Shown in pieces: positions 18,001 through 24,000 of a DNA stretch of 64,000 nt. Numbering within the stretch: the first letter of the stretch is position 1; every line of letters starts with the position of its first letter. The stretch is from assembly GCA_963717525.1 (NCBI GenBank), contig OY970343.1, forward strand, positions 2,097,252 through 2,161,251, given 5' to 3'. The DNA is from an uncultured Methanoregulaceae archaeon. GTDB taxonomy: Archaea; Halobacteriota; Methanomicrobia; Methanomicrobiales; Methanospirillaceae. Position numbers: made by a program.

Positions 18001-21000
18001 GAATGCCGGATCTCCCCACGAAATGCCGGGGGAACAGGGTGTGTTCGACCGAGCCGGTAAATAAGATCGGTAAAGAACGCCTCTGCGATCTCGTCCACCG
18101 ACGTGGCGAATGCACACCGGGTCACACACTGTGCAGCTGCTATCTCCCCGATGAGATCGCCTGCGAGCACCCGGCAGGAGCGGCAGGCGGACTCCTGCCC
18201 TTCCTGCCGCATGAGTTTGTCCATAGTAACACTATACCGCTCCGCAAACGAGCCGGAGAACCATGGAACACCGCAGGCACCTGCAATCGTTCCGGCCTGC
18301 TCCGCGACCGGGTAACCAGTGATCCCGGGATCAACAGTAATCGCAGAGAGCCGGACGTCCCGGCGGTTGGCGGTCAGGTGGAAAAGAAAGGAGAGGAGGG
18401 CAGCGCTGGGAGCGTCTCCCGATGAAGCCACGGCGATATGATCGCCCGGGCGGAGCCAGCCGTGGGTCCGTATGGTGCGTTTGGCCTTTGCCTCAAGATC
18501 ACGGGTGAAATGCACCGGGCAGAGGTGTTTTCCCGAATAAGGCTGGAAGACAACAGCCTCGCGCCTGCACGCATCGCACTGCATGGGTGACAGATCCTGT
18601 TCTGATCTGGATGACCAAAGATGTTTAAGGTTGTGATGCTCCGGCGGTATGTACGGAGCCCATGATTTTATAGTCTGCCACATAACCACTCTAGCAACCA
18701 TGGTCGTGTCCCCGGAGCGGATTCGCAGCCTGCATAAGTACGAGAAGGCGATCCTCCTCGCGCTTGAACGCCAGATGAAGCGGTACGAGTGGGTGCCGCT
18801 CGAAAGCCTCCAGCAGGCGACAGAGCTCTCCGAGTCCGAGGTCAATTACCGGTTGTCCCGGCTTATCCAGTGGGGCATGGTGCGGTTCAACCCGGTACCG
18901 TACGACGGCTACGCGCTCGTCTTTGGCGGGTACGATACGCTCGCGCTTACCACCCTTACCCGGAAGGGCATCATCTCGGCGCTGGGTACAAAAATCGGCG
19001 AGGGAAAGGAGTCCGTTGTCTACGATGCCCTCGGTCTTGGGCCGGTTGCGATCAAGTTTCACCGGATCGGCCAGCGCTCGTTCAACACGCCCCGGATCAA
19101 CCGGGAGTATCTCCCTGAGACCGGCAGTTGCCCGTGGCTGCTTGCCTCCCGGCTCTCCGCCGAACGAGAATACGCGGCGCTCTGCACCCTCCGCCCGAAG
19201 GTCTCTGTCCCGCTTCCCGTGGGCCAGAACCGGAACGCAGTTGTGATGGCGCTTATTTCCGGACCGGGCCTCGCCCGGTGCCGGCTTACCGACCCGGCGG
19301 CTACGCTTGATGAGATCCTTGCAAACGTGCGGGCCGCGTACCGGGCCGGTGTTATCCACGCGGATCTCTCGGAGTTCAACATCCTCATGGAGGACAACAG
19401 ATGCGTCCTCATCGACTGGCCACAGTGGATGGAGACCAGTCATCCCAATGCCGGCACCATCATCGAGCGTGATATCAACAATATCCTCGCCTTCTTTGTG
19501 AGGAAGTACAAACTTGCGTATGATCCCGGGGAAGCACTGCGATGCGTGACCGGCTGAGTGTTTTTGGGATCGATATCGTCAAAGGCTCGGTACGTTCGCG
19601 ATCCCGCCGGCCGATGTATGCCCTCGTCCGGATGGAGGGGCAGGAGATCACAAGTGAGACCACGGTCTCGATGTTCCGGCTCTTCCGGCTCCTCTCAGAG
19701 GAACGGCCTGACATCCTTGCCGTCGACAGCCTGCAGGAGATTGCAACCGACCAGCACGGGCTCTTCTTCTTTCTGCAGGGCCTTCCGCCGCAGACGAAGC
19801 TCGTGCAAGTGACCGGCGGCGAAAAAAAGGAAACTCTCGGGAAGGTCGCCGCCCGGTTTAACATCAGCTTCGACCGGTTCGACCCCTTTGCCGAGGCCCG
19901 CACGACCGCACGGGTTGCATCACTCGGCGCCGGGGCAGAGGTCATCGCGTTCGAGAACGAAAGCGAGGTCGTCGTCAGCCGTCACCGTTCGCCGGGCCGT
20001 GGCGGCTGGAGCCAGAACCGGTACGTGCGGAAGATCCACGGTGCAGTCCAGCTCAAAGGGCGGGAAATCGAGATGCAGCTGGCGACGACCGGCCTCCGGT
20101 ACGAGAAGAAGGAGACGAAAGCGTTCGGGGGGTGCAGCCGGGTGGTCTTCCGGGTCTTTGCCGCCCGGGGACTGGTGCCGGTTTCCACATACCGCGGGGC
20201 CGACGTGCAGGTCCGGATCAGTGGCAAGCGCCTCGAACGGATCCGGTTCCGGCCACTCTCGGGGAAACCCCGGTACCTTATTGTGGGCATAGACCCGGGC
20301 ACAACAACAGCGATAGCCGCCCTCGACCTTGACGGCAACCTCCTGCACCTCGAAAGTTCACGGCAAATGGACATGTCTGGTGTGATCGAGGCCCTGTATA
20401 AGGTAGGTAAGCCGCTCGTGATCGCCTCCGACGTCCAAGTGATGCCCTATTCGGTGGAGAAGATCCGGCGGGCGTTCTCGGCGGTTGCCTATACGCCTAA
20501 ACAGGACACCGCTGTGGAGGCAAAGCTCGCGCTGACGGCAGGTTATCCGTATGCGAACGTCCACGAGCGCGACGCCCTCTCTGCCGCTCTCGACGCATAC
20601 GTCCAGTACCAACACAAGTTCCGGAACCTCATCAAACGGGTACCCCCGGGCCACGATCTCGACGAGGTCCGGGCCCGGGTGATCCGGGGACAGGCACTCG
20701 ACCAGGTACTTGTTGATCTTCACGCTGTTACAACGGTTGCCCCGGCAATAGAGGCCCTCGTGGCCCCGGTTGAGGCCCGGCATGACGAACGGGTACGGGT
20801 GCTGGACGGGATGGTAAAACGCCTGCGCACGTACGTGGCCGAACTCCAGGAGGAAGTCAAGGCAAAGGAGTACGAGATCCACCGGCTCCAGGGACGGCTC
20901 CGCGGCATGCACGAGCGCCGGGACGTGCAGATTGCCAAGGATGCTGAGGTCGCAAAACGGGATGCGATCATCCAGAGCCTGAAAAAACGGCTCAGGAAGG

Positions 21001-24000
21001 AGGAGCGCCACGGCCGCACGCTTGCAAAACGGGTGGAACGGATCCGGACATTCGCCGAGCTCTCCATCGATGGCGAAGCGCTTCCGGTCAAGGTGCTGGA
21101 TGCGCTCACCAAAGAGGGGCTGCGCCGGCTCACGGAAGACACCGGTATCGGCGAAGGAGAGATCGTGTACGTGCAGCGCATCGGTGGCTGGGGGCGCAGC
21201 GTGGTCAGGGATCTTGCGGGCATCGGGATCCGGGCCCTGATCACTCCTGCTGCCGGAGAAGGCGATCCGCAGATCCACGCAGAATTCCGGGAGGCCGGCA
21301 TCCCCCTGCTGTCTGCCATGGATACCGGTGTGCAGGTGCGGGGCAGGCAGGGCCTTGCCCCCAAAGACCGTGTCGAATCTGCCCTCTCCCTCTGGCAGGA
21401 AGAACAGGCGCAGTTTTTGCATGAGAAAGAATCCAGCCGGATCGAGCACATGTTCAAGGAGTACAAGAGCGAACGTGGTAAGGAAGTGCGAAAAGGGGGG
21501 AGCAGCTGACCATGGACGACCGGGAACTCTTGAAGACTGTAATGGCGATCATCGGAGAGGAGAACTGCCGCGATGACTGCGCCATGCTCCCGTGCGGGGA
21601 CCATGTGATGGTAGCAACGACCGATATGCTCCACAAGACAACCGATTTTGTGGACGGCATGACCGACTGGCAGATCGGCTGGATGAGCGCCGCGGTCACC
21701 ATCAGCGACATCGCGAGCATGGGCGCAGCCCCGAAGTACGTGCTCATCGCGGTGGGGCTTTCCCGGTGGGAGCAGCTTGCCGGCATCATGCAGGGGGCGC
21801 AGGACTGCAGTAAAAAATTCGGCGCTGCGATCATCGGCGGTGATATCGACCACCACGATGAGCTCACGGTCGTGACGACCGGCCTTGGTCTTGTGGACCG
21901 GGCGCACCTTGTGCAGCGGACTGGTGCCCGTCCAGGCGACCTTGTCTGTATCACCGGGAGCCCGGGGCAGGCGCAGGCATGGCTCGACGGGTACAAACAG
22001 TTCGAAAAAGCACTTTTCGAGCCGCAGCCCCGGGTGGCAGAGGGGCAGGTGCTCGCTCGCGGGGGAGTGACCGCGATGATGGACGATAGCGACGGGATCG
22101 CGCTCTCGCTCTACGATCTTATGAGCGTCAACGCATGCGGGTTCTCCATCGACCCGGAGAAACTGCCCCTGCCGCCGGGCATTCCTCGAGTCCCGGGCCC
22201 GGGAACTGGCGCTGTACGGCGGCGGGGACTACGAGCTGATCTTCACCCTGCCCCCGGAACGGTACCCCGTACCTGGCGTGCCCTGCAGAGTGATCGGGAG
22301 AGCCATACCGGAGAAGGCGGTGCTTGCGGGGGGAAAACCGGTGGAGAAACGAGGGTACCAGCACCGGTGGGCGTGAGCCAGCACCGCGGCAGGTGCCGGC
22401 GCATTTCTCTTAAATACAAAAAACAAAAGGTACTGGAGATCAAGGAGCCATTCACCACTCATGGACTCGCTGGAGAGCAAACTGGATCGCCTTTCGGCAG
22501 AGCAGCGCCGGGAGGCCGAGGACTTCATCGACTTTCTGATCCAGCGGGCGGAAGGGATCAGGGTGACTGTACAGCTGCCATCGCACGATGTCTCCCCGGC
22601 CATGAAATCGGTCGCACCCCCCCTCATCACCCCGGATCCTGTTACTGTGGAGGAGCCGGCAGTATCCCAGTCCCGGGATAATGCCCCTACGCCGGCTGCA
22701 GCTGACCCGGTTCCTGAAGCCGAACCGCAGGCCGTCGTCCACGAGATCGAGATCGATGACGGGCTCCTCGACTACGGAAAATTCGAGAGAACAGTCGCAG
22801 CGCCGGCCCCGCTCCCCTCATCTCCCGCAGATGCTGCGGTGCAGAAGGTCAAGAGAAAGCTGATCCAGAAGAGCGAGCAGGCATCAAAGAACCAGCTCCT
22901 TGACTGGATGGATTAATTTTCAAAAAACTGCTCTAAAGAAATCATGTGTGGGATTTGGAAGAACGCTTCTTTTAGGGCTCCGGCGAGCCTCCGCCCCCGC
23001 CCCCTCGGGGCATGGCTGGCGTGAGGGGGGCTGCATATTAAAAAAAATTTTCCCCCGAAAAAAAAGAACAATAAAAACCGATGGACTCGACGGGATTCGA
23101 ACCCGTGGCCTTCACGTTGCAAACGTGACGATCTACCCCTGATCTACGAGCCCTCTTATGCGGCATATACTTTTCCCGCCGATTCCATATAGTTGTTACT
23201 GATCGGCCTGATACTATCGAGGCTCCTGTGGGCTCCCCCGGTTTTCTGGGGTGTCGGCTGGAATTGACGGAGCTGAACATTTTATAAAACCCCGGGCCCA
23301 AGAAATGATCAGGATGCCCGGCACAATGCAGCACCCTGCACCCCGTGAAAAAACCGGAGATTCCCCATGGTAAAACTGATCATCGAACCCAAAAAGACAA
23401 AGGATGGCCAGATCGACTATATCGTCACGTACCACGATGTAAAGACCGACAACCAGTTCACCGTCACGACCACAAACGACCTCAGCGAGGCTGTGCAACG
23501 GTTGAAAGAGACCCTGGAAAACGAGATAAAGGTCCTTACCTCGAAATAAACCGGAAAAACCCGGTTCTTTTTTAATTTTATAAAAACGACATGGACCCGG
23601 CGGGATTTGAACCCGCGGCCTCTACGTTGCGAACGTAGCGATCTACCCCTGATCTACGAGCCCGGTGTGGTATTACAATTCTCCCGCGGATGGAATATAG
23701 TTGTTGCTGTAGCAGGCAAATCCTTGCGAAAAAATAGAAAAATCAGAGGATGATCTCGATATCGAGCTTCTCTGCCAGTTCTTTGTACCTGTTCCTGATG
23801 GTGACTTCCGTGACCCCGGCCACTTCCGCCACTTCGCGCTGGGTGCGCCGCTCGCCTCCAAGGATGGACGAGATGTATATGGCAGCGGCCGCGACCCCGG
23901 TCGGTCCCCTGCCGCTTGTGAGTTCACGTTCCCCTGCCTGCCTCAGGATCTCGACTGCCCGGCTCTGGACCTCTCCCTTAAGGGTAAGCCCGGAGCAGAA

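Follow-up and report, generated by a model that had tools for sequence, protein, structure and literature searches.

A DUF460 protein encoded directly behind Rio2 is a candidate helper nuclease working on archaeal ribosomes

The DUF460 gene directly behind rio2 in a 64,000-nt stretch of an uncultured Methanoregulaceae genome (the window; contig OY970343.1, positions 2,097,252 to 2,161,251) encodes a protein that resolves, in its AlphaFold2 model, into five parts, including an RNase H-type nuclease with an intact catalytic site and an inserted domain folded like those with which bacterial release factors read stop codons. We tentatively read it, at somewhat less than an even chance, as an ancient, non-essential archaeal RNase on ribosomal particles that shares a late small-subunit step with Rio2. 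The cited literature names no enzyme for several of the nuclease steps by which archaeal 16S matures, nor for release and decay in the quality control of archaeal ribosomes; DUF460 is a candidate helper nuclease on ribosomes that lends itself to testing. No functional study of the family was found in the literature searched, the coverage of which stops short of subscription journals and bioRxiv supplements.

Gene organization and linkage

The longest open reading frames place rio2 at 18649-19557 (+) and DUF460 at 19542-21509 (+), recovering the coordinates and the 16-nt overlap of the Rio2 and 655-aa DUF460 genes given in a first-pass annotation (Table 1). Since ten close relatives begin at 18700 and a TTTATA box precedes this position, rio2 most likely starts there and not at 18649; the overlap is unchanged, and the position of the box suggests a leaderless transcript. 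The product has the N-terminal wHTH (Rio2_N, 1.4e-22) and RIO domain (RIO1, 2e-41) that define Rio2, and its catalytic residues H220, D222, N227, and D239 are invariant in 48/48 sequences. The DUF460 gene is an ordinary, full-length member of its family (PF04312, 2.5e-48 over aa 217-349; 163.6 bits, gathering cut-off 28), and the full-length AlphaFold2 model has a mean pLDDT of 92.4. A complex prediction for full DUF460 with Rio2 (score 0.00, mark 0.32) is counted neither for nor against contact between them. No RNA run was listed as containing 18600-21600. The downstream thiL, present near DUF460 in 9/27 Halobacteriota-titled and 0/43 Thermoproteota-titled loci, is taken as a lineage-restricted, unrelated neighbour.

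Table 1 Features of the rio2-DUF460 locus (window coordinates)
Feature	Position	Strand	Basis and remarks
TATA-like box	18666..18673 (TTTATA 18667-18672)	+	Sequence; 27 nt upstream of probable rio2 start
rio2, Rio2 kinase/ATPase (wHTH + RIO domain)	18700..19557	+	Pfam; 285 aa from probable start
DUF460 / COG2433 / arCOG04219 gene	19542..21509	+	Pfam; 655 aa; 16-nt overlap with rio2
Domain 1, RNase H-like fold	19551..19934 (aa 4-131)	+	Fold match; acidic D11, D62, E66
Domain 2, inserted ferredoxin-like domain	19938..20234 (aa 133-231)	+	Fold match to RF1/RF2/PrfH/mtRF1 stop-codon-decoding domain
Basic Gly-Gly loop and helix start, GGxSQxRYxR	19977..20030 (aa 146-163)	+	Alignment; aRF1/aVLRF1 loop-helix-like
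Domain 3, DUF460 RuvC/YqgF/Tex-type nuclease	20271..20621 (aa 244-360)	+	D251-D297-H341-D344 and invariant K328
Coiled-coil helix	20784..21065 (aa 415-508)	+	AlphaFold2 model; behind small helical subdomain and disordered linker 399-414
C-terminal alpha/beta domain (aa 513-607) and tail helix with EY(R/K)xxR	21078..21497	+	Model
thiL (thiamine-phosphate kinase)	21512..22681	+	TIGR01379, 1.7e-52; 2 nt downstream of DUF460

The neighbourhood of Rio2_N and DUF460 described in that annotation extends well beyond this genome. Among 121 genomes drawn from the class, all of which turned out to belong to the same order, both genes occur in 119 and are adjacent and co-directional in 118; in the sole exception they are split over two contigs. 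Elsewhere DUF460 adjoins rio2 in 48/96 Halobacteriota outside the order, 29/33 Thermoproteota, and 17/30 Asgard-type loci (550 nt separate the pair in one of these 17), and an overlap or short gap is maintained across phyla. The linkage is far above chance and spans three phyla. Two of 61 Asgard-type genomes encode proteins of 382 and 389 aa in which domain 1 is fused to a RIO kinase (hhalign 97.7%); these were recovered by a genome search and were not among the 7 matches of a word search with an Asgard N-terminal domain.

The gene block is nevertheless old and slow-moving, since metK, which is convergent and functionally unrelated, is retained in 30/43 Thermoproteota DUF460 loci. Sulfolobales carry rqc2, rio2, and DUF460 in this order, all on the same strand (PMC6249222 supplement 7). 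An NFACT/rqc2 gene lies <=6 kb from DUF460 in 20/43 Thermoproteota loci, mostly beyond metK, and in 0/27 Halobacteriota-titled loci. The recurrent neighbours that were scanned include no recombination gene as a repeated operon partner. The same block holds nucS at some loci, and an Sm/Lsm gene.

Distribution and dispensability

DUF460 was found in most sampled Halobacteriota and Asgard-type genomes and in half of the Thermoproteota; it was not found in 45 of the 101 Thermoproteota searched, nor in the M. jannaschii control. These 101 genomes divide into 33 with DUF460 and Rio2, 23 with DUF460 only, 22 with Rio2 only, and 23 with neither (Fisher p 0.32), and 27/123 DUF460-bearing Halobacteriota outside the order are without Rio2_N. 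Since the two genes are lost independently in Thermoproteota, DUF460 does not need Rio2. Short forms, counted by frame length, make up 32/123 and 16/56 of the DUF460 proteins. They are missing domains 1 and 2 (domain content checked in nine), 11 of them still stand behind rio2, and the shortest whole forms measure ~360-420 aa. A core of nuclease, coiled coil, and C-terminal domain is kept even where domain 2 or Rio2 is missing.

Transposon sequencing in S. islandicus scored the DUF460 gene M164_1944 as non-essential, with 22 insertions, and Nob1 as essential, with 0 (PMC6249222 supplements 1 and 7). Rio2 is dispensable like DUF460, rqc2 is essential, and both Rio2 and DUF460 belong to the LACA gene set (PMC6249222). 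The earlier suggestion that DUF460 may act instead of Nob1 is not supported by these data: being dispensable where Nob1 is essential, DUF460 is no replacement for it, and in S. islandicus it is neither essential nor mutually exclusive with Nob1. A function alongside Rio kinases at the 3' end of 16S, for which DUF460 is a candidate, would be common to the two, whereas Nob1 is a PIN nuclease and DUF460 is of RNase H type. The S. acidocaldarius DUF460 gene is Saci_0797.

Domain architecture

Two thirds of the protein had been described as having no family. This holds at Pfam cut-offs, where the N-terminal and C-terminal domains match no consistent family, but in the AlphaFold2 model these parts are folded domains. 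The catalytic residues of domain 3, previously unchecked, are intact (D251, D297, and H341 in 125/125 sequences, D344 in 124/125), and the domain is retained in all forms examined.

The closest fold for aa 244-357 is that of RuvC resolvases (6lw3, 4ld0, 7xhj; Z 11.8-12.3; best match rmsd 2.6 over 110 aligned residues), with acidic residues in strands 1 and 4, an HxxD helix, and a four-residue metal site that takes the form D-D-H-D. The strand-4 catalytic residue of RuvC is Glu, whereas it is Asp in DUF460, for which catalysis is predicted; RuvC chains are also single domains of ~155 aa, unlike the DUF460 nuclease, which is one of five parts. Other matches include poxvirus resolvase (Z 10.0), MOC1 (Z 9.8), IS110, IscB, and Cas9/Cas12 RuvC. 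YqgF/RuvX, Tex, and Spt6 score lower than RuvC (Z 8.5-10.1; YqgF 9.1, Tex and Spt6 9.2-10.1) and have other flanking domains, and DUF460 is archaeal; YqgF/RuvX stands alone at ~140 aa, in contrast to the 655 aa and five parts of DUF460. In bacteria, YqgF trims pre-16S, which is a functional precedent. The accessible part of Majorek 2014 (PMC3985635) treats DUF460 as archaeal with a predicted intact RNase H-like site, in the same RNase H clade as YqgF/Tex/Spt6 and clustered beside them; the Asp residues in strands 1 and 4 and the C-terminal helix by which it recognizes the family are present here. That part reports one RNase H-like domain, calls further domains likely, and contains no rio2 link, second RNase H, or release-factor-like domain.

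Domain 1 resembles PolB exonuclease domains with a middling score (Z 7.9-8.5). Its acidic residues (D62 and E66 in 125/125, D11 in 116/125 with 9 gaps) are a possible second metal site.

Domain 2 finds its best fold matches in bacterial-type release factors. It superimposes on residues 117-226 of RF2 (1gqe) with Z 10.5 and rmsd 3.0 over 87 aligned residues, and among 48,161 chains searched, ranks 1-6 are all bacterial-type release-factor decoding domains (Z 9.3-7.0); the next match is uS10 (Z 6.8), followed by many uS10-type ribosomal proteins, so that the best release factor leads uS10 by a Z of ~2.5 on a common fold. Profile similarity is negligible: hhalign against release-factor domain 2 gave 1.4% (P 0.038, against 15 sequences), a release-factor domain-2 profile had no match under E 1 among 8702 frames, and our own domain-2 profile ranked aRF1 third (E 1.1). 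The Atlas returned no match for domain 2, and a whole relative gave DUF460 clusters only. Among the fold matches listed, no part of DUF460 matched the release-factor GGQ hydrolase domain; eRF1/Vms1 M domains were likewise absent from that list, which does not amount to exclusion. If domain 2 were a true homologue of the RF1/RF2 decoding domain, it would to our knowledge be the first outside bacterial-type release factors. It would then offer a clue to the origin of that domain and bear on a long-standing puzzle, the lack of kinship between the release factors of bacteria and those of archaea and eukaryotes.

In the hhalign alignment, G154-G155 fall on the Gly-Gly preceding RF1 helix alpha5, the tip of which contacts the stop codon and A1493 (PMC3418547). 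Both proteins start a long helix at the Gly-Gly and have a second Gly-hairpin in register, whereas the DUF460 loop is ~four residues longer and basic, and its domain sits between two nuclease folds.

The loop itself (G154, G155, and R163 in 125/125, R160 in 123, S157 in 119, Q158 in 85) resembles that of archaeal release factors. It aligns with aVLRF1 (hhalign 96%, 51 columns) and aRF1 (89%, 31 columns), sharing GGxSQxR(F/Y)xR at the same spacing. Pfam acVLRF1 matches 46/48 domain-2 sequences (best 2.1e-7), and in a search of 61 genomes the 36 weakest acVLRF1 matches at E<=0.01 comprise 35 DUF460 proteins and one other. Six of 30 Asgard loci carry GGQSA, as in aRF1. A GG(x)SQ-type loop followed by an Arg-rich helix is present, but the conserved catalytic glutamine of aeRF-1/VLRF1 is not, as Gln occupies the GGQ position in 12/125 and the GGxSQ position in 85/125. 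In aeRF-1/VLRF1 three successive strands of a domain with the RNase H fold lead into the loop, according to the available text of Burroughs and Aravind 2019 (PMC6514570), which does not mention DUF460; domain 2 instead runs, in the model's own secondary structure, from a helix through one strand (132-147), the loop, and a helix to three strands. A profile from 15 aVLRF1 sequences ranks DUF460 fourth in this genome (E 1.2). Identity with aVLRF-1, a separate protein of 305-375 aa in which an N-terminal coiled coil and a stop-codon-binding domain precede the catalytic domain, is ruled out by this different architecture and the variable Gln.

The C-terminal domain has no invariant residue and gives weak profile matches only (chaperonin apical, designed Rossmann); Y641 of the tail is present in 117/125. 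PDB sequence searches with DUF460 returned coiled-coil or chance matches, and we count HIV integrase (E 0.04-0.19) among the latter.

Candidate functions

In the favoured reading, domain 2 would dock, by the basic Gly-Gly tip of its helix, at the decoding-site region of a late or faulty pre-30S, on the helix 44/45 side, making contact as the equivalent RF1 tip does. Metal-dependent domain 3, aided by domain 1, would then cut or trim 3'-extended, opened-circular pre-16S, the candidate substrate; alternatively, faulty subunits would be marked for decay. The Rio2 ATPase would time access, and DUF460 would assist or back up Nob1 without replacing it and could operate without Rio2. This reading is consistent with the adjacency in three phyla, the RIO fusion, the fold of domain 2, the invariant catalytic residues, the placement in the YqgF/Tex/Spt6 clade, the common dispensability of Rio2 and DUF460 in S. 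islandicus, and their LACA membership. It also agrees with PMC5815136 and PMC10351888, in which archaeal rio1/rio2 deletions alter the 16S 3' end and 3'-extended 16S accumulates, and with PMC10351888, in which a step at that end awaited a named nuclease; that paper announces a ribonuclease without naming it, which may or may not be DUF460. Against it count the missing Rio2 co-occurrence in Thermoproteota, the Halobacteriota without Rio2_N, the short forms, the slow-moving block, a nuclease nearer RuvC than YqgF, the 1.4% homology score of domain 2, and its small Z margin over uS10. The first-pass proposal of a small-subunit maturation nuclease acting with Rio2 is partly supported: it gains from the intact site, the linkage and fusion, the A-site-factor-like domain, and the rio1/rio2 deletion data, but an obligate partnership with Rio2 is not supported. 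Its strong form, an obligatory 16S end-forming nuclease that replaces Nob1 and needs Rio2, draws on the same linkage and site and is very improbable: the Tn-seq data largely refute it, and DUF460 is lost or kept separately from Rio2 and was not found in many Thermoproteota or in M. jannaschii.

A structure-specific DNA nuclease, RuvC-like and acting on junctions or flaps as a coiled-coil dimer, would explain the best fold matches, the PolB-like domain 1, and the persistence of the core; domain 2 would be a generic nucleic-acid-binding arm and the rio2 linkage an inheritance, as the metK neighbours persist here without common function and nucS shares the block at some loci. We consider this doubtful, though deserving of serious weight, given the co-directional overlap in three phyla, the RIO fusion, the lack of a recurring recombination partner among the neighbours scanned, and the invariance of the release-factor-like loop in full-length forms; archaea also possess Hjc/Hje resolvases. 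Rather unlikely is a role in ribosome rescue or quality control, with the loop-helix entering the A site of a stalled 70S or an Rqc2-bound 50S like Vms1/aVLRF1 and with mRNA, tRNA, or rRNA as the target of the nuclease domains. The loop matches to aVLRF1, aRF1, and acVLRF1, the Asgard GGQSA, and the proximity of rqc2 in Sulfolobales and at Thermoproteota loci point that way, but the Gln varies, the scaffold is not the aeRF1 RNase H domain, the aVLRF1 profile barely detects DUF460, and rqc2 scores as essential in S. islandicus, is absent from the Halobacteriota-titled loci, and lies mostly beyond metK. A Tex/Spt6-like factor with a general part in RNA decay or transcription, and thus without specificity for ribosomes, would suit the fold scores, the clustering in PMC3985635, and the Sm/Lsm gene in the block. 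It is improbable, as no HhH or S1 match was reported for any part and the rio2 linkage would go unexplained. The RNase H-like site of Spt6 is inactive, in contrast to the intact site of DUF460.

A more far-reaching version, in our view unlikely, makes DUF460 a LACA-age ribosome-surveillance enzyme, with a true release-factor decoding-domain homologue bearing an aRF1-like tip, two nucleases that finish or destroy rRNA under Rio2, and Rqc2 as a partner in Sulfolobales. Because DUF460 is dispensable, knockouts and point mutants (D251, D11, G154/G155, R160/R163) are feasible in two model archaea.

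The rio2-DUF460 locus

A Pfam scan reproduced the first-pass annotation of both ORFs, rio2 and the gene for the 655-aa DUF460 protein (PF04312/COG2433/arCOG04219), and the overlap it had claimed between them was borne out by the plus-strand coordinates (see table). The rio2 start is probably at 18700, which is 27 nt downstream of a TATA-like box and agrees with the start in ten close relatives. Rio2 catalytic residues are unchanged in 48/48 sequences. Near relatives of the 655-aa protein carry the name Methanoregula DUF460 proteins, and the gene is a typical representative of its named family. 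Divergent from the operon is a TtuA/NcsA-like tRNA thiolation gene, which is likewise divergent from DUF460 in a genome without rio2 (locus L176), and a housekeeping cluster (TFB, Gar1, PHP protein, SRP19, HypB, and eS8; Pfam) lies nearby. The short TtuA/NcsA-like ORF, the long thiL (389 aa vs 288 aa in a relative), and an rqc2 broken across two frames in the window genome are probably assembly indels.

Features of the rio2-DUF460 locus and of related loci
Feature	Location	Strand	Remark
TtuA/NcsA-like ORF	17850-18584	-	short
rio2 ORF	18649-19557	+	overlaps DUF460 ORF by 16 nt
DUF460 ORF, 655 aa	19542-21509	+	Pfam DUF460
DUF460 C-terminal domain	21078-21362		alignment A5
thiL	21512-22681		starts 2 nt past DUF460 ORF
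Housekeeping cluster	23743-27273		
rqc2, window genome	G000:C1:747902-749108		two frames
TtuA/NcsA-like gene, relative	L176:3862-4794		
Domain-1-RIO fusion, second copy	L267:1586-2731	-	divergent RIO kinase domain
Domain-1-RIO fusion, second copy	L268:1344-2510	-	divergent RIO kinase domain

Linkage to rio2 across the Archaea

A sample of the class comprised 121 genomes, every one a member of the window's order; rio2 is directly upstream of DUF460 on the same strand in 118 of the 119 with both genes. The pair is kept in 48/96 genomes with both genes in Halobacteriota outside this order, and in 29/33 among 101 Thermoproteota. The DUF460 N-terminal domain occurs in 50 of 61 genomes of the phylum of a Njordarchaeota-titled locus (L101), by inference Asgard, where rio2 precedes DUF460 in 17 of the best-scoring 30 of 52 matches. 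Two of these 61 genomes encode a second protein, of 382 or 389 aa, that joins DUF460 domain 1 to a RIO kinase domain (hhalign 97.7%; Pfam RIO1 1.8e-12 and 2.4e-19). Thermoproteota-titled loci have rio2 in 33/39 cases with sufficient upstream DNA; convergent metK is kept in 30/43, marking the region as an old block, so synteny by itself is no proof of shared function.

The coupling of DUF460 with Rio2 proposed in the first-pass annotation is favored by linkage and the RIO fusion, but the presence of the two genes is independent in Thermoproteota, which counts against a tight partnership: 33 genomes have both, 23 DUF460 only, 22 Rio2 only, and 23 neither (Fisher p 0.32, in a sample of kin that are not independent and of draft genomes that may miss genes). 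Rio2 counts here rest on profile hits below 1e-60; the Rio1-like hits, which scored near 1e-41, were left out, as was one second hit of 8e-58. A Rio2_N match is missing in 27/123 DUF460-bearing Halobacteriota outside the window's order. In one Thermoproteota lineage with rio2 undetected (L157-L162, from genomes G257, G265, G289, G273, G342, and G313), full-length DUF460 persists with an ArsR-type HTH gene on one side and metK on the other, and the domain-2 loop Gln is lost (GGMS-S/E/A).

Architecture of the DUF460 protein

Most DUF460 representatives (120/150) are 600-760 aa long; 119 of these were aligned with five closer relatives and the query. The AlphaFold2 model from this 125-sequence alignment (mean pLDDT 92.4) has an RNase H-like domain 1, an inserted ferredoxin-like domain 2, a RuvC-type domain 3, a coiled coil (aa 415-508), an alpha/beta domain in which no residue is invariant, and a tail helix. 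This architecture is a variation on RNase H-fold nucleases; Majorek 2014 (PMC3985635), in its abstract and excerpts, describes only one of the domains. Domain 3 (aa 244-360) is the DUF460 nuclease, and its catalytic residues, previously left unchecked, form an intact site (D251, D297, and H341 in 125/125; D344 in 124/125); K328 is likewise present in 125/125. Domain 1 (aa 4-131) has RNase H-like topology with conserved D11, D62, and E66, and it matches PolB exonuclease domains at intermediate scores (Z 7.9-8.5); its activity is uncertain because its last helix carries no conserved acidic residue in the alignment. The C-terminal domain has a spacing that we take to be like that of swivelling beta/beta/alpha domains. 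Chaperonin apical domains also match it weakly (E 0.003). Several methanogen DUF460 proteins have an S-H pair there that is absent from the window protein.

Domain 2 and release factors

In a Foldseek search with the whole model, release factors on 70S ribosomes ranked first (E 4.9e-4). Realigned domain 2 (aa 133-231) matches RF2 117-226 with Z 10.5 (rmsd 3.0, 87 residues) and RF1 104-209 with Z 9.8. When domain 2 was modeled by itself and searched against 48,161 chains, ranks 1-6 went to mtRF1, RF1, RF2, PrfH twice, and RF1 (Z 9.3-7.0, where two rows exceed 8 and lower values may reflect common arrangement only); uS10-type proteins came next (Z 6.8), together with further ferredoxin-like folds. 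Foldseek with domain 2 alone ranked the same proteins first, though none below E 0.001. A weak profile match to 15 RF sequences (1.4%, P 0.038) aligns G154-G155 with the Gly-Gly before RF1 helix alpha5, the tip of which, in a passage of PMC3418547, touches the first stop-codon base and A1493. Homology to the release-factor decoding domain is therefore only suggested.

The domain-2 tip carries a GGxSQxRYxR loop (G154, G155, and R163 in 125/125; R160 in 123/125; S157 in 119/125; Q158 in 85/125) that aligns gap-free with the loop of the window genome's aRF1. Loop matches extend to aVLRF1 (96% over 51 columns) and aRF1 (89% over 31 columns). Pfam acVLRF1 matches 46/48 domain-2 sequences, mostly under its cut-off, and its 36 weakest hits in 61 genomes are 35 DUF460 proteins and one other. 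A self-built aVLRF1 profile reached only E 1.2 against DUF460, the alignment has no invariant glutamine in either loop register, and the aeRF1 domain, as presented in part of PMC6514570, has a scaffold unlike that of domain 2. We read the loop as a putative tip for gripping rRNA and not as a hydrolase of peptidyl-tRNA. Six Asgard-type DUF460 proteins (L241, L246, L247, L249, L250, and L252) have GGQSA, the exact aRF1 motif, and would be the likeliest members for putative peptide release.

Possible function

Alongside the observed intact site, fold matches, rio2 linkage, and RIO fusion, we tentatively propose that DUF460 is an accessory RNase whose targets would be small subunits that are late or faulty. 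Domain 2 would dock the protein near the decoding site of the small subunit, and Rio2 may time its action. Excerpts of published work report that H. volcanii can do without rio1 and rio2 and that the 16S 3' end is affected when they are lost (PMC5815136), an effect tied to class 4/5 (3'-extended) 16S precursors, for which an unnamed conserved ribonuclease has been announced (PMC10351888). No functional study of the DUF460 family was found in the literature searched. DUF460 is a candidate, ready for knock-out, for an open 16S maturation step, with rRNA as its putative substrate.

The first-pass annotation had also considered DUF460 in place of Nob1. According to portions of a S. islandicus Tn-seq study (PMC6249222), DUF460 (M164_1944; 22 insertions, log2FC -0.21) and rio2 (20 insertions) are non-essential and Nob1 is essential (0 insertions), which speaks against substitution; an obligatory Nob1 substitute is highly improbable. 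The same portions place DUF460 in the last-archaeal-ancestor gene set and give the one-strand order rqc2, 19 nt, rio2, 4-nt overlap, DUF460. This gene order recurs in locus L087, and NFACT/rqc2 lies within 6 kb of DUF460 in 20/43 Thermoproteota-titled and 0/27 Halobacteriota-titled loci; a rescue factor acting with Rqc2 is an unlikely reading. In fold, domain 3 is nearest to RuvC (Z 12.3), followed by poxvirus resolvase and MOC1 and, after these, by Tex, IscB, and YqgF (Z 9.1). A DNA junction nuclease is a somewhat unlikely reading and a Tex/Spt6-like RNA factor an improbable one. Some ribosome-directed role, readings combined, is fairly probable.

Short forms

DUF460 proteins without domains 1 and 2, judged by frame length, make up 32/123 in Halobacteriota outside the window's order and 16/56 in Thermoproteota, and are also present in DPANN-titled loci. 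A domain scan upheld the loss in nine, and rio2 still precedes 11. These forms (~360-480 aa) belong to several separate lineages (L163, L164, L165, L166, L167, L168, L173, L174, L176, L131, and L135). In four of them the gene ahead of DUF460 is nucleoside phosphorylase-sized (284 aa), itself preceded in three by a CDC48-sized gene (Pfam assignment in L163 only).
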